Below, in pieces: positions 8,650 to 31,840 of a stretch of 32,000 bases of DNA (position 1 is its first letter; each line of letters begins with the position of its first letter). The stretch lies in assembly GCA_002309635.1 (NCBI GenBank), contig DBXO01000042.1, forward strand, positions 47,120 to 79,119, given 5' to 3'. The notes under the pieces were generated by a model. It was not told where the DNA came from. It saw only the letters and a program-made list of their open reading frames with translations, and searched no databases. Both the position numbers and the translations under genes were made by a program. The DNA comes from Ruminococcus flavefaciens. Its GTDB lineage: Bacteria; Bacillota; Clostridia; Oscillospirales; Ruminococcaceae.

Positions 8650-8676
8650 AAAGCTCCCCTTTCGGGGAGCTTTTTC
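8650..8676 (+). terminator. rho-independent terminator after the nfeD-SPFH operon
   Basis: AAAGCTCCCC-TTTC-GGGGAGCTTT-TTC: a 10-bp stem with a T-run. Confidence 0.85.
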
Positions 8677-8935: not shown

Positions 8936-8964
8936 TTGCAATTGCTCCGATATTGTTGTATAAT
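8936..8964 (+). promoter_or_regulatory. sigma-A promoter of the MBOAT operon (TTGCAA, 17-nt spacer, TATAAT)
   Basis: TTGCAA at 8936-8941 and TATAAT at 8959-8964, which leaves a leader of about 120 nt before the MBOAT ATG. Confidence 0.6.
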
Positions 8965-9086
8965 TGATTATATAGGCATTATTGTATGCTTTTACAGAAA
9001 TAAGATCATATAAATATAATATTTTTTGCTGCGACTGCTTTTACGCGGTATACATATATAAAATTTGCAGCAAGGCGGTAGAACAA

Positions 9087-10487
9087 ATGGTATTTTCGAG
9101 ACTTTTCTTCATATATATTTTTCTCCCTGTCTGCCTGTTGTGCTATGGGCTGGCAAGAGGGACCAAACATAAAAATACGGTGCTGATATTTTTCTCGCTG
9201 ATTTTTTACGCTTGGGGCGAACCTGTCTATATCTTCCTTATGCTGGCTACAGCTGCGGTGAACTATGCCGCGGCGCTGTTCATCGGGAAGTATAGAGGCA
9301 AAGGAGGAGATACCGCCGCGACGGTCACTGCTGTCGTGTATGATCTTCTCATGCTTGGCGTATTCAAGTACAGCGGCTTTATCGTGGAAAATATCAACGC
9401 CGTTTTTTCGTCGTCCATACCAGTTCCCGATATAAGACTGCCTATCGGTATCAGCTTCTATACCTTCCAGACAATATCCTACATAATCGACTGCCACTGG
9501 GAAAAGGTGGAGCCACAGAGGAGCTTCAGGAACTTTCTGCTGTACATTTCTTTATTCCCGCAGCTCGTTGCAGGTCCTATCGTAAGATACAGCACCATAG
9601 AAAAAGAGATAAACGAGCGCACTGTGCAGCTCAGCGATGTTTCCTACGGTCTTAACAGAGTAGCGCTGGGTCTTGCCAAAAAGGTGCTCCTTGCCAATCA
9701 GATAAGCCTTATTTCCGATAAATTCCTTGGCAATATCGGCAGCTCAACAATGCTTGGAGCTTGGTACGGAGCTATCGCTTACGGCTTGCAGCTCTATTTT
9801 GACTTTTCGGGATACTCCGATATCGCTATCGGTCTCGGCAGGATATTCGGCTTTCACTTTGACGAGAACTTTGACCATCCGTTTATGTGCAGGGATATCA
9901 CTGAATTTTGGCAGCGCTGGCATATCTCACTCGGAACCTTTTTCCGCGACTACGTCCTCTATATCCCCATATTCGGCAAGCGCAGAAAATACGGCGGACT
10001 CCTCCTCGTATGGCTTTGTACGGGAATCTGGCACGGAGCAAGCTGGAACTTTGTAATATGGGGACTTTACTACGGACTTTTCATCTTTATCGAGATGCTC
10101 ATAGGCAAAAAGAGAATGAAGAAAGTCCCTGTGGCAATACGCCATATCTACAGCAAATTCGTGATTATCACCGGCTTTGCCATTTTCTATTTCGAGGATA
10201 TGGGAAAGCTGGGCACATTCTTCAAAACAGCTTTTGGATTAGGCAGAAACGGCTTTATTGCCGTGCAGGACAAGATATCTCTTGTGAACAACGTTTTTCT
10301 GCTGGCAGCTGCCGTGATATGCTGTTTCCCGATTATAAAGACTATAAAGGACGTTACGGACAAGCACTTTGTAACAAAGGCGACCATGTCGTCTGCCGCA
10401 GCTGTAGCTTCGGCTCTCCTGCTGCTGATAACAAGTATAATGCTTGTTGACTCTACGACCAATCCCTTTCTTTATTTCAGATTCTGA
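9087..10487 (+). CDS. MBOAT family membrane O-acyltransferase (AlgI/DltB/PatA class)
   Basis: I moved the start to MVFSRLFFIYIFLPV (ATG 9087), which is a typical AlgI/DltB N-terminus. Motifs present: PIGISFYTFQTISYIID and EFWQRWHISLGTFFRDY, with the invariant MBOAT His at residue 279 (nt 9921-9923). The protein is multi-pass. Confidence 0.9.
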   Translation: MVFSRLFFIYIFLPVCLLCYGLARGTKHKNTVLIFFSLIFYAWGEPVYIFLMLATAAVNYAAALFIGKYRGKGGDTAATVTAVVYDLLMLGVFKYSGFIVENINAVFSSSIPVPDIRLPIGISFYTFQTISYIIDCHWEKVEPQRSFRNFLLYISLFPQLVAGPIVRYSTIEKEINERTVQLSDVSYGLNRVALGLAKKVLLANQISLISDKFLGNIGSSTMLGAWYGAIAYGLQLYFDFSGYSDIAIGLGRIFGFHFDENFDHPFMCRDITEFWQRWHISLGTFFRDYVLYIPIFGKRRKYGGLLLVWLCTGIWHGASWNFVIWGLYYGLFIFIEMLIGKKRMKKVPVAIRHIYSKFVIITGFAIFYFEDMGKLGTFFKTAFGLGRNGFIAVQDKISLVNNVFLLAAAVICCFPIIKTIKDVTDKHFVTKATMSSAAAVASALLLLITSIMLVDSTTNPFLYFRF

Positions 10488-10502
10488 TACGAGGCATGCA
10501 AA

Positions 10503-11969
10503 ATGAATACTAATAAATTAAGCGGCGCTGCCGAAAAGGATAAAAACAATACCGCAGATACCTGCCGTCCCGAGCCCGCGATTTCCATAGAGGCCTCCGA
10601 TCGCAAGGGTACGGCTATAGATATTCCCATAAAGAACAAAAAGACCAAAAAGCAGCGCAGAAAAAAGACCATGAACAGTATCGCCCTTGCCAATATCATG
10701 CTCCTCGGAGCTGTATTCGCCGGCGGGTTCGTATATGTCACCCTGCTCCCCCATGAAACAAGAGCCGACGACGAGAACCGCTACCTTGCAAAGTTCCCGA
10801 GGTTCAGTGCAAAAGCCTATGCAAGCGGCGAATTCACTGAGGGAGTTGCTGATTACTTTGACGATACGGTGCATAATCGTACCGATATCAAGCAGTTCAT
10901 TGCCGATATGATCATGCCGCTCAAGGGTATGAAGTACGGCGGAGACAAAGCAGAGCTTTTCGGCAGCGGCTTTGAAAAGAATACTTCTCCTGTTGTCACT
11001 GCTGTTACTACATCAAGAGTAACGACTACAGCTGTAACCACAGAACCTCAGGAGGTCACTACTGCTGCCCCCGAGGAGGATAACGCAGGAGACGGAGAAC
11101 TCACAAACAATATCCTCATCGTAAACAAGCGCGGTATAAACCTTTACGGCGGAGCATGGGGCGGCGAACAGGAGTACGCTTCATACGTCAATGCCTACAA
11201 GGAGGCTCTCCCCGATATAAATGTATACTCAATGGTGCTGCCTACAGCGAGCTCATTCTATCTGCCCGACAAGTATAAGGACCTTTCCCAGAGTGAAAAG
11301 GCGGACTTTGACAGCCTTGAAGCCTCGCTCAGGAACGTTCTTCCGGTTGACGCATACAATATTCTTGAAGCTCACAAGGACGAGCCTATCTACTCCCGCA
11401 CCGACCACCACTGGCAGCCCCTGGGAGCTTACTATGCGGCTAAGCAGTTCGCGCTGACAGCGGGAGTTCCCTTCCCCGAGCTTTCGGAATACGAAAAGGT
11501 CACTCTGCCCAACTATGTCGGAACTCTCTATATGTACACTCAGAGCGCCACGCTTCTGAACAATCCCGAGGACTTCGTTTACTACAAGCCGAAGACCAAT
11601 GTTACCGTTACGCAGTACGATACCCGCTTCGCCAATCCTGTGGCGGCCAGTCTTCTGTTTGACACGTCTCAGATGCCAAATTCGGGATATTATATGGTAT
11701 TCGGCGCGGATGAAAGGATAGTCCATGTAAATACGGAGTGCAAGAACGGCAGGACCCTTGTCATATTCAAGGACAGCTACGGAAACGCTCTCCTGCCAAT
11801 GCTTACAAGCTCATTCGAGAATATCTATCTTTGCGACATAAGATACTTTGAACTCAACGCTCCCGAGTTCATAAGAAGTGTTCAGGCGACCGATCTCCTG
11901 TTCGCCATGTGTTCGTTCTCTGCTGTTGGCGGGAACAAATACAGCATTTACAATAATCTCATAAGATAA
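10503..11969 (+). CDS. DHHW family protein (AlgJ/AlgX-like extracytoplasmic O-acyltransferase/esterase candidate), single-pass
   Basis: Lys-rich cytoplasmic N-terminus, a TM (IALANIMLLGAVFAGGFVYVTLL), and a Thr-rich linker (VVTAVTTSRVTTTAVTTEPQEVTT). The eponymous motif YSRTDHHWQPLGAYY gives D301-H-H-W at nt 11403-11414. A downstream LVIFKDSYGNAL serine motif is also present. Confidence 0.85.
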   Translation: MNTNKLSGAAEKDKNNTADTCRPEPAISIEASDRKGTAIDIPIKNKKTKKQRRKKTMNSIALANIMLLGAVFAGGFVYVTLLPHETRADDENRYLAKFPRFSAKAYASGEFTEGVADYFDDTVHNRTDIKQFIADMIMPLKGMKYGGDKAELFGSGFEKNTSPVVTAVTTSRVTTTAVTTEPQEVTTAAPEEDNAGDGELTNNILIVNKRGINLYGGAWGGEQEYASYVNAYKEALPDINVYSMVLPTASSFYLPDKYKDLSQSEKADFDSLEASLRNVLPVDAYNILEAHKDEPIYSRTDHHWQPLGAYYAAKQFALTAGVPFPELSEYEKVTLPNYVGTLYMYTQSATLLNNPEDFVYYKPKTNVTVTQYDTRFANPVAASLLFDTSQMPNSGYYMVFGADERIVHVNTECKNGRTLVIFKDSYGNALLPMLTSSFENIYLCDIRYFELNAPEFIRSVQATDLLFAMCSFSAVGGNKYSIYNNLIR

Positions 11970-11978
11970 GGAGAGCAT

Positions 11979-13784
11979 ATGAAAGAACTCAATTTTCCTT
12001 TTGACAGCAAAGATATAATACGCAGGCGGCTGGCTATTAAAAAGGAGCTCCTTTCCGACGGTACTGCCCGCGTAAAAAAGAGGATAGCCGTTCTCGGCGG
12101 CTCCACCACCAATCATGTTATATCGGCACTGGAGCTTTTCCTGCTGAATTTCGGCATAGAGCCGGTTTTCTATCAGTCAGAGTACAATAAATTCTATGAG
12201 GATGCGGTTTTCGGCAATCCGGAGCTTGACAGCTTCGATCCCGATGTGATATATATACATACCACTTCGCGAAATATTACCAAGCTACCCGCTGGTCCTG
12301 CAGTAAGGGCCGAGCAGGTTCAGAACGACCTGAATGAACAGTTTGCCTGCTTCAAGCAGGTATGGGAGAGCCTCATGCAGAGATTCAGCTGTCCCGTAAT
12401 ACAGAACAATTTTGAGCTTCCCCTTTTCCGTCGCACGGGAAGCTACGACGGCTGGAGCGTTACCGGACATGCGGCTTTTATTGAAAGGCTGAACGTGATG
12501 TTCTCGGACTACGCGCGCTCCGTACATGGACTTTACATACACGATATCAATTACCTTTCGGCCGTATGCGGCCTTTCCAACTGGCATGACGCTGAGGCAT
12601 GGTATCTTTACAAGTACGCCATGAGCACATCTGTTATCCCTGATCTTGCCTACAGTCTCGCATGTATAATAAAATCTCTCTACGGCAAGAACCATAAAGT
12701 CATTGACCTTGACCTCGACAACACCCTCTGGGGCGGAGTTATCGGTGATGACGGTCAGGACGGCATAGAGATAGGTCCGGAAACGGCTATCGGTCAGTCA
12801 TTCAGCGAATTCCAGAGCTTTATCAAGGGCTATAAGGACTACGGCGTGGTCCTTGCGGTATGCTCGAAAAATGATGAAGAAAACGCCCTGCTTGGTCTCG
12901 AACACCCAAGCAGCGTACTGAAAAAGTCGGATTTTGTCTCCATAAAGGCCAACTGGGAGCCCAAGGACCGCAATATCGTTGAGTCCTCTCAGGACCTCAG
13001 CCTCGGTCTCGACAGCTTTGTTTTCATTGACGATAATCCAGCAGAATGCGCTATCGTTGAGGGACAGCTCCCCATGGTGCAGACCGTGAACCTCAGCAAT
13101 GTACATGATGCTATGTACAAACTCACACGCGGAGGCTATTTTGAGGTGACTACTGTTTCCGACGACGATATGCACCGCTCGGAAATGTACGCTGCAAATG
13201 CTCAGAGAGCCGCTCAGCGAAAGAGCTTCGACAGCTATGAGGACTACCTTGTCAGCCTTGAAATGAAGGCTGTGATCTGCGGCTTTAAACCTGTATATAT
13301 CCAGCGTATAACCCAGCTCACCAACAAGAGCAACCAGTTCAACCTCACTACACGCCGCTATAACGAAAACGAGATAACAGACGTAAGTACAAGTACAGAC
13401 CATATCTGCCTTTGCGGACGCTTGGTTGACAAATTCGGCGATAACGGCATTGTTTCCGTAGTTATCGGCAGGATAAACGGAAATGTCCTTGATATGGAGC
13501 TGTGGCTCATGAGCTGCCGCGTTCTCAAAAGGGACATGGAGCTTGCCATGCTCGACGAGCTTGTAAGACACGCAGCCGAAAAGGGACTTGCAGGAATAAA
13601 CGGCTATTACTATAAATCGCTGAAAAACAGCATGGTCTCGGAGTTTTACGGCTCTCTTGGCTTTGAACTCAAAGAAAAGCTTGAAAACGGCGATTCCGTA
13701 TGGCACCTTGATATAAAAAACTATAAAAACAAAAATAAAGTCATAAAAATACTTGATAAGGAGATACAAAATGAATGCAAATGA
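11979..13784 (+). CDS. FkbH-like / HAD-superfamily subfamily IIIC enzyme with C-terminal GNAT-like FkbH domain
   Basis: 601 aa, with TAAGGAG 6 nt upstream. HAD motif I is VIDLDLDNTLWGG (D245xD247xT249, nt 12705-12725). Motif II is AVCSKN and motif IV is VFIDDNP. The C-terminal FkbH-type segment is NQFNLTTRRY...DKFGDNGIVSVVIG...LWLMSCRVLKRDMELAML, with C513 at nt 13515-13517. Confidence 0.85.
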   Translation: MKELNFPFDSKDIIRRRLAIKKELLSDGTARVKKRIAVLGGSTTNHVISALELFLLNFGIEPVFYQSEYNKFYEDAVFGNPELDSFDPDVIYIHTTSRNITKLPAGPAVRAEQVQNDLNEQFACFKQVWESLMQRFSCPVIQNNFELPLFRRTGSYDGWSVTGHAAFIERLNVMFSDYARSVHGLYIHDINYLSAVCGLSNWHDAEAWYLYKYAMSTSVIPDLAYSLACIIKSLYGKNHKVIDLDLDNTLWGGVIGDDGQDGIEIGPETAIGQSFSEFQSFIKGYKDYGVVLAVCSKNDEENALLGLEHPSSVLKKSDFVSIKANWEPKDRNIVESSQDLSLGLDSFVFIDDNPAECAIVEGQLPMVQTVNLSNVHDAMYKLTRGGYFEVTTVSDDDMHRSEMYAANAQRAAQRKSFDSYEDYLVSLEMKAVICGFKPVYIQRITQLTNKSNQFNLTTRRYNENEITDVSTSTDHICLCGRLVDKFGDNGIVSVVIGRINGNVLDMELWLMSCRVLKRDMELAMLDELVRHAAEKGLAGINGYYYKSLKNSMVSEFYGSLGFELKEKLENGDSVWHLDIKNYKNKNKVIKILDKEIQNECK

Positions 13785-14013
13785 AATAATCCCGCGTCTT
13801 AATTCGGTTTTCAGAGATGTTTTCGGAGATGACAGCATTTCCGTTTCCGCAAAGACTACAGCCGACGACATCGATGACTGGGACAGTCTTGCACATATAA
13901 CCCTCGTTGAAGCTGTTGAACATGAGTTCGGACTGCGCTTCAGGATGAGAGAGGTCTCCTCAATGAAAAATGTGGGGGATATGATAAACATTATTGCCGA
14001 AAGAGGCAGCTGA
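13771..14013 (+). CDS. acyl/peptidyl carrier protein (phosphopantetheine-binding, DltC-sized)
   Basis: ATG at 13771 follows AAGGAG and overlaps the FkbH-like gene by 14 nt. The protein is 80 aa and contains DDIDDWDSLAHITLVEAVEHEF, i.e. the DSL attachment-serine motif (S39, nt 13885-13887) at the start of helix 2. The track ORF begins 6 codons earlier. Confidence 0.85.
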   Translation: MNANEIIPRLNSVFRDVFGDDSISVSAKTTADDIDDWDSLAHITLVEAVEHEFGLRFRMREVSSMKNVGDMINIIAERGS

Positions 14014-14846
14014 TGTCAAAAAAGAAACGAAAGCTGCTCATTGCTGCCGCTGTTATAATTGTACTGTCGGTTCTGTCAGCATGGGGCTTTGTCATGAAAA
14101 CTGTAAGATATACAGTAAAGTCAGACAAGTCTGACAGCAATATAAGGATAGCGTTCATCTCTGACCTGCATAACTGCTTCTACGGAGACAGTTCACAGTC
14201 CAAGCTCATACAGGAAGTTGAGAACAGCTCCCCCGATATCGTCATATTCGGCGGAGACGTCATCGACGCATGGGGCGGTACTAAATATGCTCTCCGCCTT
14301 ATCTCGAAGCTCAGCATGGAGTATCCATGCTTCTACGCTCCGGGAAACCATGAGGAAATGCGTGACGACAAGGAGGAGTTCTACAGTGAGGTTCAGAAAT
14401 ACTGCCCAATGCTTCTCGGAGAGTACAGTGAGATAAACATAAAAGGGCAGGCTGTCCGCATTTACGGAGTCCTCGACGATACTGCCTGGGGGAAAAGCAA
14501 GGCACAGATTGAAGAATGCTTCGATACCCTCGACAGCAGATGCTTCAATATACTTCTCGCACACCAGCCGGAACAGATAAACAGCTTTCTCGGCGATGAT
14601 GATAAGTACTTCGACCTCATACTCTCCGGACATGCTCACGGAGGACAGTGGAGGCTGCCGAAGATACTGGATCAGGGACTGTATGCTCCCGATCAGGGAA
14701 TACTCCCCGACTATACAACAGGTATGTACACCTACGGCAGAACGACCCATATAATCAGCCGCGGACTTGCAAGACCGCTGAGAATGATATTCATTCCCCG
14801 TATTTTCAACCGTCCCGAGCTGTCTGTAATCAATATAGAAAAGTGA
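14013..14846 (+). CDS. membrane-anchored metallophosphoesterase (YkuE/YaeI-like calcineurin-fold)
   Basis: The ATG overlaps the carrier-protein stop (TGATG). There is an N-terminal signal anchor (LLIAAAVIIVLSVLSAWGF). All MPE motifs are present: IAFISDLHN, GGDVID, GNHE, LLAHQP, SGHAHGGQ. Confidence 0.9.
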   Translation: MSKKKRKLLIAAAVIIVLSVLSAWGFVMKTVRYTVKSDKSDSNIRIAFISDLHNCFYGDSSQSKLIQEVENSSPDIVIFGGDVIDAWGGTKYALRLISKLSMEYPCFYAPGNHEEMRDDKEEFYSEVQKYCPMLLGEYSEINIKGQAVRIYGVLDDTAWGKSKAQIEECFDTLDSRCFNILLAHQPEQINSFLGDDDKYFDLILSGHAHGGQWRLPKILDQGLYAPDQGILPDYTTGMYTYGRTTHIISRGLARPLRMIFIPRIFNRPELSVINIEK

Positions 14847-15755: not shown

Positions 15756-18281
15756 ATGTCGGATCAGAAACCATCGCTTGAGGATATTCTGGACGAGTAT
15801 TCTCCGAACAGCAGCCATACCAGGGCGGCAGGCAGGGTCGATACACAGAAGGTGCTCAATTCGACCGTTGATACCCCTGATATCGTGCAGAAAGCAAAGT
15901 CCAGACCTCCAATATCACATGAGAAATCAGCGCTCTTCGACAATGCGCTGCGAAACGACAAACCCGCAGACGAATTCAAGCCTGCCGATATATCGCGGCA
16001 TAAAATAGCCGTGGTAAGCTCCGACGCAATGAGCGAGATACGTGCCAATCCGCAGAGGAAGGCCGTACCGTCAGGCACCATCACTCCCGTTCAGATGACT
16101 CCCGACGAAGCGCCGAAGATAAGGCGTATGAGCGAGTCTACCCGGGCCAAGGAGATGGAAAGCAAAAAGAACAAGAAAAAACGCCGCGGGAAAGACAATG
16201 ACTATACCTACGCAAAGGAAACTCCCGACGGAGAGTATATGTATACACCTCCCGAGTTCAAGAAGAAAAAGCGCAGCCGTATACAGATAATCAACGAAGC
16301 TGAAAGTCCCGAGGGCAAGAAACAGATAACCGATATCGTCCCCTCGCCTGCAGCTGTTGAAGCCGCAAAGCCTGTTGAGCCGGCTCCGAGAGCAGAGCTC
16401 ACAAGCATAAATCTAAGTGAAAAGCCTGATATCGACGCCGGCCAGCTTGACGTACATATCACTCAGGAAGCTGACGAATATATGTCTGTACACTCAAAAA
16501 ACAAGCGTACCAAAAGGATAGTCGATTTCAACTATTACGGCGACGTCGAGGATGTTGGCAGAGATATCTATGAGCTGAAAAGCACTATTGCGGCAAGAGT
16601 GGTCATTCTTGCAATGACCTCATTCCTCAGCCTGTTCATTACACTGGCTAACCAGTTCAATATCCCGATCATAGACGCTTTCAGTATGTCGCATATCAAG
16701 ACATACCTTTCAGTACACCTTATACTCGGAGCTCTTTCAATACTCTCGTCTATGGCAGTAATAACAAAGGGCGTGCGAAAGCTGTTTACAATGAAAGCAG
16801 ACAGCGACTCTATGACCGCTGTTACCGCGCTTTCCTGCCTAATCGCCATAATCCCTGCGTTTCTGAGCCCGCAGCTTGTCAGAACGGAAAATATCCATAT
16901 ATATATGCCTGTGGGAATACTTGCGCTGTTCATCAATGCTCTCGGAAAGCTTCTCATAATCAGGAGAGCGGCACGTAATTTCAGATTCGTTTCCAAGAAC
17001 TTCGACCGTCACGGCGTTACCTACGTCACTGACGAGGACCGCGCCGAGCGCATTACAAGAGGTACTCTCGGGGATTTCCCCATTCTTGCTTCAATGCGCA
17101 GGACCGACTTCCTTACTGACTTCCTGAGGTATACATATTCCTCGGATATGACCGACGATTTCTGCCGCAAGGCTTCTCCGCTCTGTCTTATAGCTTCAAT
17201 AGTCGTATCGCTGTTCCTTACTCTCTTCTGTAAGGGCAATCTCTTCACCCTTGACTCGGCAGCCTTCGGCTTTTCAATATTCAGCATGATAATATGCGCA
17301 ACCTCATGTATTGCAATGCCTTTCGTGGTAAATATCCCCCTTGAAAAAGTTTCAAAGAGTGCTATCAGGAATAAGGGAATAATGCTTGGATATCAGAGCG
17401 TTGACGACTTCTACGACACAAATTCCATACTTATCGACGCCAATACATTGTTTCCCGACGGAACGGTCCGACTTGACGGCATAAAGGTATTTTCCAATAC
17501 AAAGCTTGACGAAGCATTCCTTGAAGCTGCAAGTCTTACATCTACTGCGGGAAGTATCATGTCCCAGCTTTTTGCCGATGTCATAGCAGGCAGAAACGGC
17601 GCCCTTTATCCTATCGAGAACTACTCCTATGAGGAAGGCATGGGCATGTGCGGCTGGATAAACAACAAACGAGTTCTTTTCGGCAACCGTGAGCTCATGA
17701 CCAGCCATAATATCGAGGGAGTTCCCACAAAGGCTCAGGAAGCTGAGTCCGTTGACAGCGGCAAGGAGGCTCTTTACCTTTCAATTTCGGGAAATCTTGC
17801 TGCTATGTTCGTTGTCGATATCGTAGCTGACAGATATGTCAAGCGCTGGGCTAAAAAGCTGTGCAAAAACAAGATATGCATGTTCATAAAGTGCATAGAC
17901 CCCTGCATAACCGTGAAAAAGCTCAACAAGCTCTTCGGTATACCCGAGGAAATGGCAAGGATAATCCCCAAGAAGCACCACGAGGACTTCTACGAGGAGA
18001 CTAAAAAAGCAGTGCGTCTCAGCGCATCAATGGCTACAACAGGTAAGTTCTCATCACTTGCAGAGCTTCTTATCGGCACAAAGGTAGTCCATATCTCAGC
18101 TATAATCGGACTTATACTGCAAACCGCCTCGATCCTTCTCGGCTTTGTGCTATGTATGCTTCTGATACTCTCAAAGGCATTCAGATACAATTACGTCTAT
18201 ATGTCGGCAACTGCCCTGACAGTTTATAATCTCGCATGGACCTTGCTCACATATATCGCAGTAAAGCTGAAAAAAACATGA
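15756..18281 (+). CDS. P1B-type-ATPase-like polytopic membrane protein lacking the catalytic motifs, with a ~270-aa low-complexity N-terminal extension
   Basis: AAGGAG lies 6 nt upstream, 15 nt after the rlmB stop. There are eight predicted TM helices arranged 4+2+2 around two cytosolic loops. Recognisable P-type scaffold remnants include KGIMLGYQSVDDFYDTNSILIDANTLFPDGTV, VLFGNRELMTSHNIE and ALYLSISGNLAAMFVVDIVAD. DKTGT is DANTL, TGDN is CIDP, CPC is SCI, and TGES and GDGxND are absent. Confidence 0.6.
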   Translation: MSDQKPSLEDILDEYSPNSSHTRAAGRVDTQKVLNSTVDTPDIVQKAKSRPPISHEKSALFDNALRNDKPADEFKPADISRHKIAVVSSDAMSEIRANPQRKAVPSGTITPVQMTPDEAPKIRRMSESTRAKEMESKKNKKKRRGKDNDYTYAKETPDGEYMYTPPEFKKKKRSRIQIINEAESPEGKKQITDIVPSPAAVEAAKPVEPAPRAELTSINLSEKPDIDAGQLDVHITQEADEYMSVHSKNKRTKRIVDFNYYGDVEDVGRDIYELKSTIAARVVILAMTSFLSLFITLANQFNIPIIDAFSMSHIKTYLSVHLILGALSILSSMAVITKGVRKLFTMKADSDSMTAVTALSCLIAIIPAFLSPQLVRTENIHIYMPVGILALFINALGKLLIIRRAARNFRFVSKNFDRHGVTYVTDEDRAERITRGTLGDFPILASMRRTDFLTDFLRYTYSSDMTDDFCRKASPLCLIASIVVSLFLTLFCKGNLFTLDSAAFGFSIFSMIICATSCIAMPFVVNIPLEKVSKSAIRNKGIMLGYQSVDDFYDTNSILIDANTLFPDGTVRLDGIKVFSNTKLDEAFLEAASLTSTAGSIMSQLFADVIAGRNGALYPIENYSYEEGMGMCGWINNKRVLFGNRELMTSHNIEGVPTKAQEAESVDSGKEALYLSISGNLAAMFVVDIVADRYVKRWAKKLCKNKICMFIKCIDPCITVKKLNKLFGIPEEMARIIPKKHHEDFYEETKKAVRLSASMATTGKFSSLAELLIGTKVVHISAIIGLILQTASILLGFVLCMLLILSKAFRYNYVYMSATALTVYNLAWTLLTYIAVKLKKT

Positions 18282-18344: not shown

Positions 18345-19727
18345 ATGCCACACAGATATAACGGCAGAGATGAAAACGAGATACCAAACACTGACAATGA
18401 GGAAACTATGCTGATATCGGGTATCCCCGATGAAGAAGCTCAGTACAGACAGGAGCTGCCGCCCCTCAGACGCGTCAACCGACGCACCGCTCAGCAAAGC
18501 AATGAGGACTTTTACCGCAACGATCAGTCTCAGCCGGAGGAGCTCCCGCAGTTCCCGCATACAACTCCGCCACCGCCGCCTCACCGGTATGATCATAACG
18601 ACGTGAACTACTACGATTACGCTCAGCAGCCACCTCAGAACAGCGGAGACTGCTATCCCCCGCCCCCCGCTCCAGAAGCACCGCACCAAAAAACGGAGCC
18701 GAAGAAAAAAACTGCTCCCCCTCCCGCAGCAGAGCCCGAGCAGCCGCAAAAGAAAAAAAAGAAGCACCATAAGTCGCTGCTCAGGAGGATAACCGGCAGG
18801 ATATTCAGAATAGTGCTTGTACTTTTCCTGTTAGTTTTCGGTATATACTCATGCACCTCAGTGTGTCTTATAAGAAAGGTCAATCACGTTCCCTCCGATA
18901 ACAGGACTCACTATGCGGATTCCGTGGGCCGAGGACATGTAAGAAGCGTGCTCGTCATAGGCACCGACGGCAGAACCGCCGATGACCGCGGACGCTCCGA
19001 CTCTATGATACTTGTTTCAATGAACAGTAAGACCAATGAGATAATAATGACCTCGTTCATGCGCGACTGCTATGTTGAGATACCCGACAACGGCTGGGAC
19101 AAGCTAAATGCCGCATACGCATACGGCGGTCCGGACCTGCTTATGGAAACGCTGGAGTACAATTTCGATGTGCGCATAGACGATTACGTATCAGTTGACT
19201 TCGCCTCGTTCGTATCGGTTGTAGACGCTGTCGGAGGTATAGATATCGAGGTTTCCGATCCTGAAGCAGAGCAGATAAATATTATCCTCATATCAGAAGT
19301 AAATGAACTCATGGGCGACGACAGGAACGCCGATCTTCTCAGCGGAGGCGGAAAGCTCCACCTGAACGGAAAGCAGGCACTCTCCTATTCACGTATACGC
19401 AACGTAGGAAACAACGACTTCGAGCGCACAGAGCGCCAGCGCAGGGTAATGTCCCTTATATTCGCAAAGCTCAAGTCATTCAAACCCTCAATGTTCAAGA
19501 ATCTTGCCTCAGACGTAATACCCGATGTAAGCACAAATATGACCGACCTGAAAATGTACCTTCTCTCCCTGAGAGTTCCTTTCGCGCTGAGATATGATAC
19601 AAAGCAGATACAGATACCCGCAGAGGGTACCTACTACGGAGACGATGTGGACGTAGGAAACGTTCTGCAGGTCGACAGAGACGCAAACAGCGATTTAATT
19701 GAAAGAGAAGTATTCTCACAAGGCTGA
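18345..19727 (+). CDS. LytR-CpsA-Psr (LCP) family glycopolymer phosphotransferase with a Pro/Lys-rich cytoplasmic tail
   Basis: AAAGGAG SD. Residues 1 to about 155 are Pro-rich and low-complexity, followed by a TM (IFRIVLVLFLLVFGIY). The LCP core is VLVIGTDGR...RSDSMILVSMN...SFMRDCYVEIP...KLNAAYAYGGPDL...DDYVSVDF...RIRNVGNNDFERTERQR. Confidence 0.9.
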   Translation: MPHRYNGRDENEIPNTDNEETMLISGIPDEEAQYRQELPPLRRVNRRTAQQSNEDFYRNDQSQPEELPQFPHTTPPPPPHRYDHNDVNYYDYAQQPPQNSGDCYPPPPAPEAPHQKTEPKKKTAPPPAAEPEQPQKKKKKHHKSLLRRITGRIFRIVLVLFLLVFGIYSCTSVCLIRKVNHVPSDNRTHYADSVGRGHVRSVLVIGTDGRTADDRGRSDSMILVSMNSKTNEIIMTSFMRDCYVEIPDNGWDKLNAAYAYGGPDLLMETLEYNFDVRIDDYVSVDFASFVSVVDAVGGIDIEVSDPEAEQINIILISEVNELMGDDRNADLLSGGGKLHLNGKQALSYSRIRNVGNNDFERTERQRRVMSLIFAKLKSFKPSMFKNLASDVIPDVSTNMTDLKMYLLSLRVPFALRYDTKQIQIPAEGTYYGDDVDVGNVLQVDRDANSDLIEREVFSQG

Positions 19728-21364: not shown

Positions 21365-22732
21365 ATGAAAAAATTGATCTCATCGACAATTTCAGCTGTG
21401 ACATCAGCCGCTGTACTTATGTGTTCCTGCCTCTGCACGGCTTTCGCGGCAGCAGAAGAGCCTGTATACTTTGATCCCGAATCGGCAGAGATATACCTTA
21501 GCGACATAGACGCGCTCGATCTCTCTATGGCAGGCAGCCCGAAAATACTGTCAAATTTCAATGAGGGCTCCTACAACTACGGCGACACACTCACCGGCAA
21601 CAACCTTGCCGTGTACAACGCTATAATGAAGCTTGACGGTCCTACTACAGATCAGCTGACCATAAAGCTCCCCGAATCTGTTACGCTTTCTCTCAAAACT
21701 CTGCCAAACTCCTCGGATTTCAGCAGCAGCGACGGCGAAGCCTATCAGAACGCTCTGTTTGAAAACTGCAAACCTGGTATAGACTGCGCTCTTTTCGACC
21801 GCCCCGAGCTATACTGGATCGAGCCCACGGGTATGGCCATTTCCGTAGGCAGAGACACAACTGTTACCCGCAATATGTTCTCTGATGGATATACGGTAAA
21901 GATACGTTCTCTGCTTATAGTTCCAAAGCTGCTCGACGGCTTTAAATCCGTTGCGGATGCCGAAAACTATGGCAGGCTGCTTGATGAGGCACTGGAAAAG
22001 GTACCCGTTACCGGCGCTAACAGGTATGAGATACTGAAAAATATACATGATTACATATCAAAAACAACATATTACGACCTCAATGCAAAGTTCAGCAGTT
22101 CCGCTCTCGGCGCTCTTGTTGAGCCGGGCGTTGTCTGCGAGGGCTATTCCGAAGCCTTCAAGCTCATATGCGACAGGCTTAATATCCCCTGCGTCTGCGT
22201 GTTCGGAAACCTCATTGAGGAGGACAACGCAGGTCATATGTGGAATTATGTCAAGATGGAGGACGGAAAATGGTACGGCATGGACGTTACATGGGACGAT
22301 CTTGACGGCTCGGGAGGTAAGGAAGTGAAGTATGAGTACTTCCTGAAAGGCTCCAAGAGCTTCTACATAAAGCATACACCGGAAAGTGATTACAAGATAA
22401 CTCAGCTGGTATATCCCGAGATCCCCGAATACGACTACGTTTTAGGAGCATCCGCAGGTACAACGGCAACAACAACAACAACAACAACAACTACTACTAC
22501 CACTACGACCGTTAAAACGACTACCAAAACTACTACTGCCACTACAACAACTCAGCCGCCTAAGCCGCTTGTAGGCGACCTTAACCGCGACGGAAACGTA
22601 AACGTTGCCGACCTTGTATACTGTCAGGGCTCACTTCTCGGCAAAATCAGGCCCGAGTATTCCTGTGACGCAAACAACGATGGAACAGACGATGTTTTCG
22701 ATGTGATATTCATGAGAAAACTGCTTATTTGA
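21365..22732 (+). CDS. secreted transglutaminase-like (papain-fold Cys-His-Asp) protein with Thr-rich linker and C-terminal dockerin
   Basis: TAGGAGGG SD and a signal peptide (…CLCTAFAAAEEP). The transglutaminase-core triad context is VCEGYSEAFKLICD ... AGHMWNYVKM ... GMDVTWDD. A 31-residue Thr-rich linker precedes a dockerin (GDLNRDGNVNVADLV ... DANNDGTDDVFDVIFMRKLL). Confidence 0.8.
   Translation: MKKLISSTISAVTSAAVLMCSCLCTAFAAAEEPVYFDPESAEIYLSDIDALDLSMAGSPKILSNFNEGSYNYGDTLTGNNLAVYNAIMKLDGPTTDQLTIKLPESVTLSLKTLPNSSDFSSSDGEAYQNALFENCKPGIDCALFDRPELYWIEPTGMAISVGRDTTVTRNMFSDGYTVKIRSLLIVPKLLDGFKSVADAENYGRLLDEALEKVPVTGANRYEILKNIHDYISKTTYYDLNAKFSSSALGALVEPGVVCEGYSEAFKLICDRLNIPCVCVFGNLIEEDNAGHMWNYVKMEDGKWYGMDVTWDDLDGSGGKEVKYEYFLKGSKSFYIKHTPESDYKITQLVYPEIPEYDYVLGASAGTTATTTTTTTTTTTTTTVKTTTKTTTATTTTQPPKPLVGDLNRDGNVNVADLVYCQGSLLGKIRPEYSCDANNDGTDDVFDVIFMRKLLI
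22460..22552 (+). repeat. Thr-codon low-complexity tract including (ACA)7(ACT)3
   Basis: ACA ACG GCA (ACA)7 (ACT)3 ACC ACT ACG ACC ... encodes TTATTTTTTTTTTTTTTVKTTTKTTTATTTT. This is an in-frame trinucleotide microsatellite within the linker. Confidence 0.9.
22574..22729 (+). other. dockerin module (two Ca-binding repeats)
   Basis: GDLNRDGNVNVADLVYCQGSLLG ... CDANNDGTDDVFDVIFMRKLLI. Confidence 0.85.
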
Positions 22733-22760: not shown

Positions 22761-22800
22761 AAACGACAAAAGCTCCGGATATCGGAGCTTTTGTCGTTTT
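22761..22800. terminator. bidirectional terminator between the convergent dockerin gene and the methyltransferase gene
   Basis: AAACGACAAAAGCTCCG-GATAT-CGGAGCTTTTGTCGTTT-TT: a 17-bp stem. It overlaps the TAA of the methyltransferase gene. Confidence 0.85.
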
Positions 22801-24869
22801 TATATCAGCGGGTGCCGTTTAAAATCACGGCTCGTTTCGTATGAATCGTATTCCGCCTTTGCTATTGCCGTGCATTCTTCCGCAAGTCGGTCAACTTCCT
22901 CCGACTTTTCATATATCACGGGAAACTTTGCAACCTCTCCCGACTGAAAATTAAGTGTGGGATTAAGCTGGCCGAAAATATACTCAAACACCTTTGAATT
23001 GAGCAGGGCGCAGATAAAGTTTTTCTTTTCACCGAGCCCGAATATGCAGCAGCCGCCGTTATCAAATATATATCCCTCACCGAACTGCCTTATGCTGAAT
23101 TTTCCGCTTGTGACCGTAGACCATGTGAGCCCCGCTTTTGTAAAGTACTGATAGTTGGCTATTACCGCAGTCGGTATTCTGCGTATCTCAGCTGCGTCAT
23201 CGTACCAGTCTATGAGATAGTCATTGAAACCATACCACTTCTGATAGCCTCCTCCCTTATTATAGGGGAACCACCGCCTTGTGAGAGTATCCTCCCTGTC
23301 AATTGAACTGCTGCCGAGGTTCATCTTATGCTTGTCAACTTCATGCCACAGGCGCAGGAAACGGTCGTTGTCGGAGGTGGAATTGCCCTTTCGCGGAGCT
23401 GAAATGCTGCCGAGGGGCGGATACTTGCTGTAGAGCTCCCTCACTCTGCCGCTTATCCAGTAGGCTGCGGGAGCATTTGGTATCTTCTCAAATTCCTTCG
23501 ATGAGGTCTCATAAACATTTGCAGAATCTTTGTCAGTTATAGCTGCAAGAAACTTTTCACGCTGCAAGGCAAGTCCACCTCTGAAATCCGTCAGGCGGAT
23601 ATAAACGCCCATGACGTCAGTTCGGCAGTTCCTCAATGTAAATGCGCAGACAGGGACAGTGGCGTCCTCAAAGGAAGAATACTCAAAATGCACCAGTGTT
23701 TCGAGAGTTTTTTCATTGAACATCATTCTGCGCAGCTTCTCATAGCTGCGTATGAACATCCATACATAAGGAGTAAGAAAGCCGAGATAGCCGCCCTCCT
23801 CCGCCAGCTCGCAGCAGCGGACGATAAACGCCGAGAACAGATCAGCATGATAATCCGCATATTCTCTTTTCAGGTAGCCGAGAAGCTCCTTATTCATGTT
23901 ACTGCACGACATATAGGGCGGATTGGTGACCACAGCGCTGTATTTCCTTGAAAGGATCCTGCAAGCCCCATTTGCAGCTTCATTTTTACTGAGCGGCAGA
24001 CCTGGACGTATCAGACTTCCAAATAGCTCCGCACCACTGAAACTCTCCGAACAGCCGTCAAGCCTTTCCGTATCATATACCTGCGGAACGACAGCGCTGC
24101 CGAGTATATTCCGGCTGTAATCAGCTGCCTTGAGCAGCAGGGCAGCGCGGGCTATCCTGCAAACCTTACTGTCGATATCTATGCCGAAAAGATTGTTTTC
24201 GAGTATCAGCACCGCCGCTTCCTCTTCAGATCTCCCCTGCGCCCTGTAAAGCTCCATGAACATATCAAAGGCGCAGACCAGTATATTTCCGCTGCCGACA
24301 CATGGATCAAGGAGAGTTATTTTTTCTGGCGGGAGCTTGCTTTTATCCGTTTTTCGCGTGATATAGTACTCAAGCTTTGAAATATCAAAGCCGCAGTGAG
24401 CTGAAAACAGCCGCCCGAGTGTATTTTCTGTCATATAACGTGCTATCCAGTCGGGGGTGAATATCTGAGTTGCCGTAGCCATATTCTCGTTACCAACTCT
24501 TGAACTGTTCCTGAGACCGCCGAGTATACTGTCTTTTTTCACGCTGTTGCAGTACTGATACAGCTGCCCGATAAACCTGACATTGCTTTTCCACATTCCG
24601 GAGGGTATTTCCGAAAGAAGTTCCTTTACCACAGCAGCACCCGCAGCTATATCCTGCTCCGCCTCATGTTCACGGAACACACAGGGCATAAGACGTGTCA
24701 GCTCCGCCCCGGTATACTCCTCTGTCAGCGCATTTTTGGACATATAGACAGAAACTGCCCCACGCAGAAAGGCTTCAAATAAAAGCTCCTCTCTGTCATC
24801 TCCACAAAATAATGACGTGAGCCTTTCTCTTATGGACAGTGCGAGGTTTTTTATTGCCGTTTTCTTTAT
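22800..24869 (-). CDS. solitary N6-adenine DNA methyltransferase, PglX/Eco57I-like (gamma class) with C-terminal target-recognition region; probable ATA start
   Basis: Motif I is LLDPCVGSGNILV and motif IV is VVTNPPYM. The PglX-type signature is QLYQY...ATQIFTPDWIARYMTENTLGRLF, and the C-terminal segment is WFPYNKGGGYQKWYGFN. The track ATG at 24959 has no SD and lies upstream of an internal promoter. A strong SD (GGAAGGGAGGGAG) sits 7 nt before the in-frame ATA at 24869-24867, which gives (M)KKTAIKNLALSIRERL. If the ATG is used, the span is 22800-24959. Confidence 0.8.
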   Translation of the reverse strand: MKKTAIKNLALSIRERLTSLFCGDDREELLFEAFLRGAVSVYMSKNALTEEYTGAELTRLMPCVFREHEAEQDIAAGAAVVKELLSEIPSGMWKSNVRFIGQLYQYCNSVKKDSILGGLRNSSRVGNENMATATQIFTPDWIARYMTENTLGRLFSAHCGFDISKLEYYITRKTDKSKLPPEKITLLDPCVGSGNILVCAFDMFMELYRAQGRSEEEAAVLILENNLFGIDIDSKVCRIARAALLLKAADYSRNILGSAVVPQVYDTERLDGCSESFSGAELFGSLIRPGLPLSKNEAANGACRILSRKYSAVVTNPPYMSCSNMNKELLGYLKREYADYHADLFSAFIVRCCELAEEGGYLGFLTPYVWMFIRSYEKLRRMMFNEKTLETLVHFEYSSFEDATVPVCAFTLRNCRTDVMGVYIRLTDFRGGLALQREKFLAAITDKDSANVYETSSKEFEKIPNAPAAYWISGRVRELYSKYPPLGSISAPRKGNSTSDNDRFLRLWHEVDKHKMNLGSSSIDREDTLTRRWFPYNKGGGYQKWYGFNDYLIDWYDDAAEIRRIPTAVIANYQYFTKAGLTWSTVTSGKFSIRQFGEGYIFDNGGCCIFGLGEKKNFICALLNSKVFEYIFGQLNPTLNFQSGEVAKFPVIYEKSEEVDRLAEECTAIAKAEYDSYETSRDFKRHPLI

Positions 24870-24900
24870 AAAGCTCCCTCCCTTCCGAATTATTATTAAT

Positions 24901-24929
24901 ATTATAACATAAAGCTGCGAAAAGAGCAA
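24901..24929 (-). promoter_or_regulatory. sigma-A promoter of the methyltransferase gene (TTGCTC, 17-nt spacer, TGT-TATAAT)
   Basis: On the minus strand, TTGCTC (complement of 24924-24929), a 17-nt spacer, then TATAAT (complement of 24901-24906) preceded by TGT. Confidence 0.5.
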
Positions 24930-25053
24930 TATTTGCAGAGAAAAACTCACGATCACCATACTGCAACGCCGAATGATAAAATATTCACTAAACTATGACG
25001 GTCACATATGGTTTTATTTTATAGTAAAAAATACTATATTCATATTATATCCA

Positions 25054-25082
25054 TTGACAAAAAAAGGTTATTATGTTAGAAT
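25054..25082 (+). promoter_or_regulatory. sigma-A promoter of the GGDEF/EAL gene (TTGACA, 17-nt spacer, TGT-TAGAAT)
   Basis: TTGACA at 25054-25059 and TAGAAT at 25077-25082, with the spacer ending in TGT. Confidence 0.6.
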
Positions 25083-25129
25083 TGATGTGAAATGTAATTA
25101 TTTTTAATTCATTTCAGGGGGGGTATGAT

Positions 25130-27269: not shown

Positions 27270-27325
27270 AACTATAGAAAATTATTTTGTTTCTTGGGAT
27301 ATTAAAATACTATGGAGGAATCGTT

Positions 27326-28771
27326 ATGAAAAAACAATTCATAAGCATCAGTCTGTCAGCTGTCATGCTCGCGTCAGTAATTCCGGCTGCCGGTAACAGC
27401 TTCACCTGCACGTCTGCCGCCGACTCGGAAATGCGTGATATGACAACTATGGAAATAGTCAGAGACATGGGAGTGGGCATAAACCTCGGAAACACGCTTG
27501 AAGCCTGCGGCGACTGGATAGCCGATGTGGACAGGCAGTGGGGCGACGGCATACTCACAGTGGAAGAATACGAGACCGCCTGGGGCAGCCCTGTTATCAC
27601 AAAGGAAATGATAAAGGGTATGGCAGATGAGGGATTCGGAGTTGTCAGAGTTCCCGTTGCATGGTCCAACCTTATGGAGGACGGCTACAAGATAAACAAG
27701 GACCTCGACGCAAGAGTCCATGAGGTCGTTGACTGGATAATCGAGTGCGATATGTATGCTATCATCAATATCCACTGGGATAACGGCTGGGTAAATACCT
27801 TTCCTGACAACAAGGACGAATGTATGCTCAGATATCAAACCATGTGGACGCAGATAGCCGACAGCTTCAAGGAGTACGGCGACAGACTCATGTTCGAGTC
27901 TCAGAACGAGGAGCTCGGCTGGGAAAAGCTCTGGAATCCGTGGGGCAGCACAGACGGCAAGGCTGAATCATATGCTCTTGTAAACGAGATAAATCAGAAA
28001 TTCGTTGACGTTGTCCGCAGTTCCGGCGGAAACAATCCTAAACGTCATCTGCTCATATCAGGCTACAACACAGGCTTTGACCGCACCTGCGATCCCCTGT
28101 TCAAAATGCCTTCCGATCCCGCAGACAGAATGGCAGTATCTGTCCATTACTACACTCCCGCAGGATTTGCCATACTCGAGGACGAGGACGCAGACTGGGC
28201 AAAGGCTCGTCCCACATGGGGCACCGACGCAGACTATAAGGAACTTTACGATAATATGGACATGATGAAAAAGGGATATATCGATAAAGGTATCCCGGTC
28301 ATCGTTGGTGAATACGGCTGTCCTTCAAAGGGCAAGGAACCCGATTCTGTCAGACTTTTCATCAGCTCCGTATGCAAGGCTGCTTACGAAAGAGGATTAT
28401 GTCCCGTATTATGGTCAACTCCAGGCGGACACTATGACCGCGAAAAATGTCAGATGGCAGATCAGGAGCTGAAAAAGCTTCTGAATGAGATATCAGGCTT
28501 TGAACCAAAGCAAACCGTTACTACAACAACTACTATTCCAGATACAACAACAGCTTCACCACAAACTACAGCTATGACAACGGAAAAACAGCCTCTCAGG
28601 GGAGATTTAAACAAGGACGGCTCTTTTAACGTTGCTGACCTTGTAGCCCTCCAGCAGTTCATTCTCGGAAATGGACAGCTGGAGGCGTGGGAAGCCGCAG
28701 ATTTGTGCGAGGATAAGGTTATCGATATCTTCGATGTTATCGCTATCAGGAAACTTCTCATATACAATTAA
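27326..28771 (+). CDS. cellulosomal glycoside hydrolase family 5 (endoglucanase-type) with Thr-rich linker and C-terminal dockerin
   Basis: I moved the start to ATG 27326 (MKKQFISISLSAVMLASV signal peptide), which follows GGAGGA. GH5 motifs: GINLGNTLEA, HWDNGW, FESQNEE (acid/base Glu), VHYYTP, VGEYG (nucleophile Glu). The dockerin is GDLNKDGSFNVADLVALQQFILG...EDKVIDIFDVIAIRKLL. Confidence 0.9.
   Translation: MKKQFISISLSAVMLASVIPAAGNSFTCTSAADSEMRDMTTMEIVRDMGVGINLGNTLEACGDWIADVDRQWGDGILTVEEYETAWGSPVITKEMIKGMADEGFGVVRVPVAWSNLMEDGYKINKDLDARVHEVVDWIIECDMYAIINIHWDNGWVNTFPDNKDECMLRYQTMWTQIADSFKEYGDRLMFESQNEELGWEKLWNPWGSTDGKAESYALVNEINQKFVDVVRSSGGNNPKRHLLISGYNTGFDRTCDPLFKMPSDPADRMAVSVHYYTPAGFAILEDEDADWAKARPTWGTDADYKELYDNMDMMKKGYIDKGIPVIVGEYGCPSKGKEPDSVRLFISSVCKAAYERGLCPVLWSTPGGHYDREKCQMADQELKKLLNEISGFEPKQTVTTTTTIPDTTTASPQTTAMTTEKQPLRGDLNKDGSFNVADLVALQQFILGNGQLEAWEAADLCEDKVIDIFDVIAIRKLLIYN
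28601..28768 (+). other. dockerin module of the GH5 enzyme
   Basis: GDLNKDGSFNVADLVALQQFILGNGQLEAWEAADLCEDKVIDIFDVIAIRKLLIYN. Confidence 0.85.
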
Positions 28772-31705: not shown

Positions 31706-31840
31706 TTCAAAACCTCTTTTCATTCTGAGCAATTTCTGTGTATACGAACACATTTCGTTTCAAATTATTCCAAGAACATTTTAACCTATTTTCTCCAAAA
31801 AATCAATAGTTTTTTGTGCTTATTAATATCTTTTGACACA

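Follow-up and report, generated by a model that had tools for sequence, protein, structure and literature searches.

The window analysed here is a 32,000-nt stretch of the Ruminococcus flavefaciens contig DBXO01000042.1 (assembly GCA_002309635.1, positions 47,120 to 79,119 of the forward strand), and all coordinates below refer to it. Our subject is an operon at 9087-14846 on the plus strand, a candidate envelope acylation system, where five closely packed open reading frames (ORFs) were called on that strand. They encode a membrane-bound O-acyltransferase (MBOAT; 9087-10487, 466 aa), a protein of the DHHW family (10503-11969, 488 aa), an FkbH-like protein (11979-13784, 601 aa), a carrier protein (13771-14013, 80 aa), and a metallophosphoesterase (14013-14846, 277 aa). 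The first and second genes are separated by 15 nt and the second and third by 9 nt; the FkbH-like and carrier genes share a 14-nt overlap, and the carrier and phosphoesterase genes meet in TGATG with an overlap of one nucleotide. An AAGGAG site lies 7 nt upstream of the carrier gene ATG. A preliminary description of this DNA, made without database searches, had given the same five genes with the same coordinates, gaps and overlaps, and its five family assignments hold, as each protein scores above a curated cut-off in Pfam or NCBIfam profiles. On the opposite strand, a 397-aa ORF (12798-13991) lies antisense to FkbH and the carrier; in view of the strong homologues of the two sense genes, we treat it as a probable by-product of coding-strand composition.

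The 5' boundary of the unit is a terminator-like hairpin at 8650-8673 on the plus strand (10-bp stem with six GC pairs and a T-rich tail), which closes an upstream NfeD/SPFH gene pair; the genes upstream of it match the Pfam families NfeD and Band_7. A probable promoter at 8936-8964 (+) comprises TTGCAA, a 17-nt spacer, and TATAAT with the TGTTGTATAAT extended -10 element, and matches the consensus at 10/12 positions. Promoter consensus matches are not enriched in the region (12 versus 8.4 ± 3.2 in shuffles), and an alternative at 8991-9020 scores higher. Still, we prefer 8936-8964, the promoter already proposed in the preliminary description, because it is conserved: the TTGCA of the -35 element and TGTTGTATAAT are invariant in an alignment of the window with three related Ruminococcus loci (L083, L084 and L001 of the survey described below), whereas the alternative is not conserved in them and was dropped. 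The ribosome-binding region AAGGCGGT (9072-9079, +), 5' of the MBOAT start, occupies invariant alignment columns 273-280 counted from window position 8800. We found no convincing plus-strand terminator downstream of the fifth gene. The whole window yielded zero Rfam matches at gathering thresholds, and a permissive RNA-family scan of the 5' leader gave chance matches below threshold and no known riboswitch or leader.

The MBOAT scores 99.8 bits against the Pfam MBOAT profile (cut-off 27, E = 2.5e-28) and aligns to the DltB structure 6BUG (E = 1.6e-26) over a stretch spanning the WHxSL and WHG motifs, while its score with the DltB equivalog model, 152.9 bits, does not reach the cut-off of 375. 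The motifs FYTFQ (residues 124-128) and W-H279-ISL were located as previously described; two further elements, the catalytic H316 and a C-terminal tyrosine shuttle, had been overlooked. H316, the catalytic His conserved in all MBOATs, sits in a WHG that aligns with the WHG motif of DltB. The protein ends in F461-L-Y463-F-R-F466, that is, in the acyl-shuttle motif FxYxxF, and this ending is characteristic of PatA/AlgI-type proteins and not of DltB. PatA auto-acylates the tyrosine of its C-terminal FxYxxF from acetyl-CoA and then hands the group to the serine of an SGNH enzyme; in the Dlt pathway, the shuttle motif is carried by a separate microprotein, DltX (PMC12148441).

The second protein matches the Pfam DHHW family (PF14286, 146.7 bits, cut-off 25, E = 1.5e-42) and, more weakly, ALGX (E = 8.8e-08). 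Its N-terminal tail is followed by one hydrophobic or transmembrane segment (59-77), then by a Thr-rich linker and the catalytic domain, which we infer to lie outside the cell. The single hydrophobic segment and the motifs D301-H-H-W and FKDSYG, the latter with S425, are where the preliminary description had put them, and D445-x-R447-Y448 is also present. The nearest structure is 4NZK in the Protein Data Bank (PDB), that of an uncharacterised protein (E = 4e-81); Bacillus cereus PatB1 (5V8D) is more distant (E = 2.4e-09), with the KDS, DxRY and DHHW blocks aligned. PatB1 is the sole characterised DHHW enzyme, and O-acetylates wall polysaccharide together with the MBOAT PatA1 (PMC9487903).

The FkbH-like protein comprises three domains, FkbH_N (32.5 bits, cut-off 27), a HAD-IIIC phosphatase (65.5 bits, cut-off 35.75), and a C-terminal GNAT-fold domain, and reaches 274.4 bits with the FkbH domain model TIGR01686 (cut-off 146.65). 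It aligns to 3SLR, the structure of Bacteroides fragilis BF1531, with E = 1.9e-42. In an AlphaFold (AF2) model built from a 37-sequence alignment (pLDDT 92), the first ~400 residues match the N-terminal and HAD domains of 3SLR, and the last ~160 match GNAT acetyltransferases. The HAD residues D245-x-D247-x-T249, S296-K297 and D351-D352 are present, and the C-terminal domain contains S512-C513-R514, where C513 would be the acyl-enzyme site, as in OzmB/FkbH. These HAD residues and S512-C513-R514 are conserved across the family, in an alignment of 36 diverse representatives and the window protein, and they are also kept in the FkbH domains of two giant multidomain proteins, except for T249V in one of them. 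A multidomain FkbH protein, P0252, was considered as a polyketide synthase (PKS) and ruled out, as it carries radical-SAM/SPASM domains. Proteins 82-86% identical to the window protein are assigned to Ruminococcus sp. or R. flavefaciens. Characterised FkbH members convert 1,3-bisphosphoglycerate to glyceryl-S-ACP, a thioester on an acyl carrier protein (ACP) (PMC7489565).

The carrier matches the Pfam PP-binding family at 21.4 bits, just over the cut-off of 20.8. Its predicted phosphopantetheine-attachment residue is Ser39 in D-W-D-S-L, the D38-S39-L40 of the earlier description. The nearest solved relative is PDB 2LML (E = 2.4e-16), and in NCBIfam the protein reaches generic ACP models alone, each below its cut-off. 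The NCBIfam search gave no match to a dltC model, and the PDB search with the carrier gave no DltC chain at E ≤ 1. Hence the earlier label "Dlt-like" holds for the proposed role of this protein and fails for its family, the closest being generic ACPs and 2LML.

To see how far this gene set recurs, we surveyed other genomes. FkbH is a large family, with 13,726 clusters at 50% identity in an all-against-all HMMER search. One genome per GTDB species was scanned with an FkbH alignment (36 representatives plus the window protein), and the best 80 loci, 48-77% identical to the window FkbH and designated here by L numbers, were retained; 79 of them have an FkbH ORF and belong to other species. The ORFs of these loci were searched with the five window proteins, and the neighbours were then clustered. 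A carrier gene is adjacent to FkbH in 74/79 loci, and an MBOAT gene is found in the examined neighbourhood in 58/79, so the adjacency seen in the window does not look incidental, which had been named as a possible refutation of the operon model. An MBOAT is present in 33 of the 42 loci whose sequence extends for 6 kb or more to either side. The distance to the nearest MBOAT is 2 kb or less in 46 of the 58 loci, and in 57 this MBOAT is encoded on the same strand. Genomes have only a few MBOAT genes each, by our estimate of the background rate, and given this estimate, the MBOAT-FkbH linkage is far above chance.

The residues expected to be catalytic are retained in the linked proteins. Among linked MBOATs, 58/58 retain both H316 and Y463; a six-residue xxYxxx ending with invariant Tyr was seen in 61/61, fifty-nine of which have F-[LIV]-Y-x-x-F. 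In linked DHHW proteins, the DHHW motif is kept in 30/30 and S425 in 29/30. The FkbH proteins show no exception (79/79) at D245, D247, T249, S296-K297, D351-D352 and S512-C513-R514, nor do the adjacent carriers (74/74) at W37 and S39.

Two arrangements occur. In type A (24 loci), the order is MBOAT-DHHW-FkbH-ACP, as in the window; the hosts are Oscillospiraceae, Ruminococcus, Acutalibacteraceae and similar Clostridia, and some loci have two to four tandem DHHW genes. In type B, the order is FkbH-ACP-(tailoring genes)-MBOAT-partner, and the hosts include Lachnospiraceae (among them Eisenbergiella tayi DSM 26961 and Blautia), Christensenellaceae, uncultured Bacilli, and others. Type B MBOATs are more distant from the window MBOAT (E from 1e-33 to 1e-62), and their partner is not a DHHW protein: it is a ~340-aa transmembrane protein without a Pfam match (cluster c4, 16 loci), a GDSL_2-type protein (c22), or a member of other small families. 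Profile-profile alignment detected no relationship between c4 and DHHW (probability 1.5%); in Pfam, cluster c69, like c4, had no match, and c78 had a weak DUF1574 match below threshold. Apart from the GDSL_2-type c22, the type B partners are putative SGNH enzymes by their position and GxS/GDS-like motifs. The conserved core therefore appears to consist of FkbH, the carrier, the MBOAT and an SGNH partner, with gene order and partner family variable. A few FkbH-ACP or type B loci, ~50% identical to the Ruminococcus protein, come from bins labelled Odoribacter splanchnicus (L038), Alphaproteobacteria (L055) and Duodenibacillus (L042); their placement may reflect mis-binned Firmicutes contigs or horizontal transfer.

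The fifth gene is not part of this core. Its product matches Pfam Metallophos (59.4 bits, cut-off 21.5, E = 8.5e-16), reaches 76 bits with the YaeI model, under the cut-off of 188, and has a hydrophobic or transmembrane segment (5-23) and the complete calcineurin-like metal-binding set (D51xH53, GD81, GNHE111, GHAH206). The gene is translationally coupled to the carrier gene. In L001, L083 and L084 (70-83% FkbH identity), all of the R. flavefaciens group, a phosphoesterase gene again comes after that of the carrier and overlaps it by one nucleotide, and the downstream genes for a SpoU methylase, an 841-aa protein and an LCP (LytR-CpsA-Psr) protein are syntenic as well. The phosphoesterase was not detected after the carrier in the other type A loci (52-57% FkbH identity); L020 (74%) ends ~650 nt past the carrier gene and says nothing on this point. 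Because it was found only in R. flavefaciens-group loci, we consider the phosphoesterase a membrane-anchored genus-level accessory or passenger outside the conserved core. Recurrence as a syntenic module, proposed as a test in the preliminary description, was thus borne out across several lineages for the MBOAT, FkbH, ACP and SGNH partner, and not for the phosphoesterase.

Taken together, the linkage of the module is strongly supported, and transfer of the acyl group from the carrier to the MBOAT is likely, judging from the sequences. On balance, we favour the view that the operon encodes an MBOAT-SGNH system of envelope O-acylation, fed by an FkbH-loaded carrier with a C3 hydroxyacyl group and acting on a wall glycopolymer. 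Gene content, motifs, folds and conserved linkage are what the sequences show; which compound FkbH uses, how the carrier would pass its acyl group to the MBOAT, and which polymer is acylated we infer as follows. The substrate of the FkbH-like enzyme would be a phosphorylated C3 acyl phosphate, and homology points to 1,3-bisphosphoglycerate; a thioester would form on C513 of the GNAT-fold domain, with the HAD domain stripping the phosphate, and the carrier would receive the glyceryl on its phosphopantetheine arm at S39. The acyl carrier would then dock at the cytoplasmic face of the MBOAT, where H316 would catalyse acyl transfer through a membrane tunnel onto Y463 of FLYFRF. Outside the cell, S425 of the DHHW enzyme, which is tethered to the membrane, would accept the group from the acyl-tyrosine, and this enzyme would esterify a hydroxyl of a wall glycopolymer, e.g. 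a secondary cell-wall polysaccharide or a teichoic-acid-like polymer.

The step from carrier to MBOAT is favoured because the conserved four-gene core holds no other consumer of acyl-ACP, and the MBOAT is the sole possible acceptor of an acyl thioester within it. DltB draws its acyl group from the phosphopantetheine arm of the carrier DltC, and acetyl-CoA and acyl-ACP present the same phosphopantetheine thioester. The conserved presence of FkbH and ACP speaks for a carrier, and not acetyl-CoA, as the donor.

The closest known counterparts of the first two genes are PatA1-PatB1 of B. cereus and B. anthracis, a system for O-acetylating secondary cell-wall polysaccharide, and CcsH/CcsI. Both likewise combine an adjacent MBOAT and a single-pass DHHW transferase; PatA1-PatB1 and the operon have in common the MBOAT catalytic His and the fused C-terminal Tyr motif. 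Unlike the operon with its conserved FkbH-ACP pair, these systems have no carrier or loader and install acetyl. The Gram-negative PatA/AlgI systems differ in the same way, with acetyl-CoA as the donor and PatB or AlgX as the partner, while the operon has a carrier and a DHHW partner. In PatA/PatB, AlgI/AlgJ/AlgX and WssH/WssI, the acyl group is relayed from the MBOAT His to the C-terminal Tyr, the SGNH Ser and the polymer, and the same relay is predicted here (PMC12148441). Non-Dlt MBOAT/SGNH pathways are said to be without a carrier protein in a 2025 paper (PMC12148441).

The sole precedent for a carrier donor to a bacterial MBOAT is the Dlt system of teichoic-acid D-alanylation, in which a phosphopantetheinylated carrier is encoded together with an MBOAT and an SGNH transferase. 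Dlt has an adenylating ligase, in place of which the operon has an FkbH-type HAD/GNAT loader, and no DltA-like adenylation-domain protein was found among the 23 larger window ORFs scanned against Pfam. Dlt also has the microprotein DltX and DltD, whereas in the operon the shuttle motif is fused to the MBOAT and the partner is a DHHW protein. As far as sequences tell, the operon has the structural features of an MBOAT-SGNH system that were looked for, and it lacks those of Dlt, namely the ligase, a DltC-family carrier, a separate DltX, and DltD. This agrees with the hybrid design proposed in the preliminary description: a PatA/AlgI-type MBOAT ending, DHHW instead of DltD, and nevertheless a carrier.

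The loading half resembles the FkbH-ACP loaders of polyketide and tetronate pathways, in which, as here, a stand-alone ACP comes after an FkbH domain that has the HAD motifs and a conserved Cys. There, however, the pair feeds dehydrogenases, an O-methyltransferase, a FabH-like enzyme or a PKS, and in the operon it stands with an MBOAT and an SGNH transferase. Pfam scans found no PKS, FabH-like or FkbK/I/G genes of polyketide, tetronate or methoxymalonyl pathways in the operon or the window. Hence gene 3 is predicted to be an FkbH loader by its domain, HAD-IIIC motifs, Cys and adjacent stand-alone ACP, outside a polyketide context.

Several observations weigh against the operon acting as a carrier-fed acylation system of the wall. 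The carrier shows no sequence similarity to DltC, so homology gives no basis for predicting that it docks on the MBOAT. Acetyl-CoA is the donor for PatA-type MBOATs that have this C-terminal motif (PMC12148441), and the sequence here is compatible with that donor, too. In nine of the 42 full-length FkbH-ACP loci there is no MBOAT within 6-10 kb; such loci tend to hold a polysaccharide-deacetylase-like gene and an unknown 330-aa gene. Since the FkbH-ACP cassette can then serve other acceptors, it seems to be a general donor module recruited by several acceptor enzymes. The locus of 4NZK in [Eubacterium] siraeum (L081:5561-11661, and L082), where the complete MBOAT-DHHW-FkbH-ACP set was sought, has DHHW-DHHW-FkbH-ACP instead. 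It lacks an adjacent MBOAT, the 443-aa membrane protein upstream being DUF308, and the contig stops 630 nt past the ACP gene; the MBOAT of this lineage could be elsewhere in the genome. Finally, the target is not named by the neighbouring genes, as a Pfam scan of the larger ORFs found no polysaccharide-synthesis genes in the window that would do so, and the LCP gene is the only wall-polymer-related one there.

Some of these points would fit two independent systems in one operon, an acetyl-CoA-dependent MBOAT-DHHW pair and an FkbH-ACP pair feeding an acyltransferase encoded elsewhere, with the glyceryl going to the same polymer or its cytoplasmic precursor. MBOAT-DHHW pairs without FkbH-ACP do occur, not just in B. 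cereus (PatA1/PatB1) and clostridia (CcsH/CcsI) but also as a second pair in L017. Uncharacterised FkbH-like proteins are known outside polyketide synthesis, in a surface-glycan context where any acylation would presumably be cytoplasmic: B. fragilis BF1531 and Campylobacter jejuni cj1302. Unlike the operon, neither has been reported with an MBOAT. The C. jejuni FkbH-domain gene lies in a flagellar glycosylation island (PMC7099621) and adds to the case for separate systems. Still, we regard such separation as unlikely: the four-gene core contains no other enzyme using acyl-ACP, the MBOAT stays linked to FkbH-ACP despite changes in the SGNH partner family and in gene order, and the window genes are tightly packed, with gaps of 15 and 9 nt and overlaps.

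The sister loci bear on the identity of the acyl group. Between the carrier and MBOAT genes, type B loci have a MaoC-like dehydratase in 14 cases and an SDR (short-chain dehydrogenase/reductase) in 12; in 11 loci a VOC/glyoxalase-family protein (~131 aa) takes this position instead. Insertions of both MaoC (~140 aa) and SDR (~244 aa) were found in L021, L034, L037, L043-L045, L056, L070, L072 and L077 (e.g. L070:3444-4178, L056:11776-12201). MaoC and SDR are the tailoring expected for ACP-bound glyceryl: MaoC would dehydrate ACP-bound 2,3-dihydroxypropanoyl, and SDR would reduce the resulting 2-oxoacyl, yielding lactyl-ACP. The bryostatin BryA loading module, DH-KR-FkbH-ACP, is the proposed source of a D-lactyl starter. 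It follows the same logic, from glyceryl through pyruvoyl to lactyl on the carrier, although its domains are fused in a PKS, while the sister loci have free-standing genes feeding an MBOAT. In other loci, a split transketolase with separate N- and C-terminal halves, often accompanied by an aldo-keto reductase, adjoins FkbH-ACP (L018:16987-18752, L028, L048, L073, L079), and may provide another way of making a C2/C3 hydroxyacyl unit. The Lachnospiraceae locus L054 (240-7075) has two unlike MBOATs around one FkbH-ACP pair, in the order FkbH, type A-like MBOAT, weak DHHW-like protein, ACP, 142-aa protein, and type B MBOAT.

This variety of tailoring genes (MaoC with SDR, VOC/glyoxalase, split transketolase with aldo-keto reductase) implies that members of the family differ in the chemistry of the ACP-bound group, and it raises the question of whether the same relay could carry something other than glyceryl in the window operon, e.g. 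a lactyl, glycolyl or phosphoglyceryl unit that this FkbH clade would load from another small acyl phosphate or phosphorylated hydroxy acid. The glycan-associated clade is just 28-36% identical to the FkbH domains of large multidomain proteins, which leaves room for another substrate. Nevertheless, the HAD residues and S512-C513-R514 are invariant in the clade and agree with those distant domains, bar the one T249V; the score on the FkbH-domain model, 274 bits, is far over the cut-off of 146.65; and the window operon has no tailoring enzyme, neither MaoC nor SDR, so the unmodified FkbH product would be delivered. A different group is therefore rather improbable here, and glyceryl is the preferred reading.

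As to the acceptor, three Lachnospiraceae loci have the set embedded among GtrB-like GT2, GtrA, DUF6020 and DUF6044 membrane proteins, and such GtrA/GtrB-like surroundings are a context of extracytoplasmic glycan decoration. The acceptor might instead be a membrane glycolipid, a lipoteichoic-acid anchor, or a glycoprotein of the surface or the cellulosome: no glycan-synthesis genes lie beside the operon in the window, the organism displays many dockerin-bearing surface proteins, and Dlt shows an MBOAT-SGNH machine acting on a lipid-anchored polymer (PMC12148441). This we consider very unlikely, since the sole characterised DHHW enzyme acts on wall polysaccharide (PMC9487903), and the surroundings of sister loci include genes for glycosyltransferases, GtrA/GtrB-like proteins and nucleotide-sugar enzymes.

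In the full-text literature, we found no description of an MBOAT/SGNH operon fed by an FkbH-loaded carrier, in line with the preliminary description, which was aware of no characterised system of this composition; most subscription journals lie outside this coverage, and an earlier mention is possible. FkbH and MBOAT were mentioned together only for the cyanobacterial aeruginosin and suomilide clusters. Since many gut Clostridia share this gene set and our searches turned up no publication on it, the operon probably decorates the cell surface with a small acyl group of a new kind, most likely glyceryl. More tentatively, and with slightly less confidence than an even call, we suggest a third class of MBOAT-mediated envelope O-acylation in gut and rumen Clostridia and some uncultured Bacilli, next to acetylation and D-alanylation, with glyceryl supplied by a carrier that FkbH charges directly from a glycolytic intermediate and passed through a PatA-type MBOAT to wall glycopolymers, and lactyl or another C2-C3 hydroxyacyl in the sister loci with dehydratase and reductase genes.

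If this is true, PatA-type MBOATs can accept carrier-protein donors, and abundant commensals have surface ester modifications of a whole family that has gone unrecognised. Surface charge, resistance to lysozyme and antimicrobial peptides, S-layer anchoring, and biofilm-matrix properties are set by MBOAT-SGNH systems, which are currently divided into the acetyl-CoA-fed PatA/AlgI type and the single carrier-fed Dlt system. A widespread carrier-fed PatA-type system would break this division, and would provide a natural test of how MBOATs recognise a carrier protein as opposed to CoA. The predicted glyceroyl and lactoyl wall esters would occur in dominant fibre degraders of the rumen and gut, with possible effects on phage adsorption, immune recognition, and the architecture of the cellulosome or the cell surface. 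The four-gene module is tractable, and a crystal structure is available for 4NZK, a close relative of its DHHW protein.

Downstream of the operon, an 841-aa ORF (15756-18281, +) has a Lys-rich, probably disordered N-terminal third, many hydrophobic segments and no Pfam match; its position between the SpoU methylase and LCP genes is conserved in L083 and L084 (841 and 809 aa). The LCP gene itself (18345-19727, +), 3.5 kb downstream of the operon and syntenic in relatives, encodes a wall-glycopolymer ligase, which could attach the polymer that the operon decorates. Three dockerin-bearing proteins, a transglutaminase-like one (21365-22732, +), a GH5 cellulase (27287-28771, +), and a GH43 protein with ricin-B lectin and Big_4 domains (28814-31753, -), mark the organism as a cellulosome-producing Ruminococcus. 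Between them, a gene for a 719-aa Eco57I/MmeI-like N6-adenine methylase (22800-24959, -) adjoins the kilobase with the lowest GC content (25001-26000, 0.374), which overlaps the start of a GGDEF-EAL gene (25130-27118); the methylase and the low-GC region may be a horizontally acquired patch.

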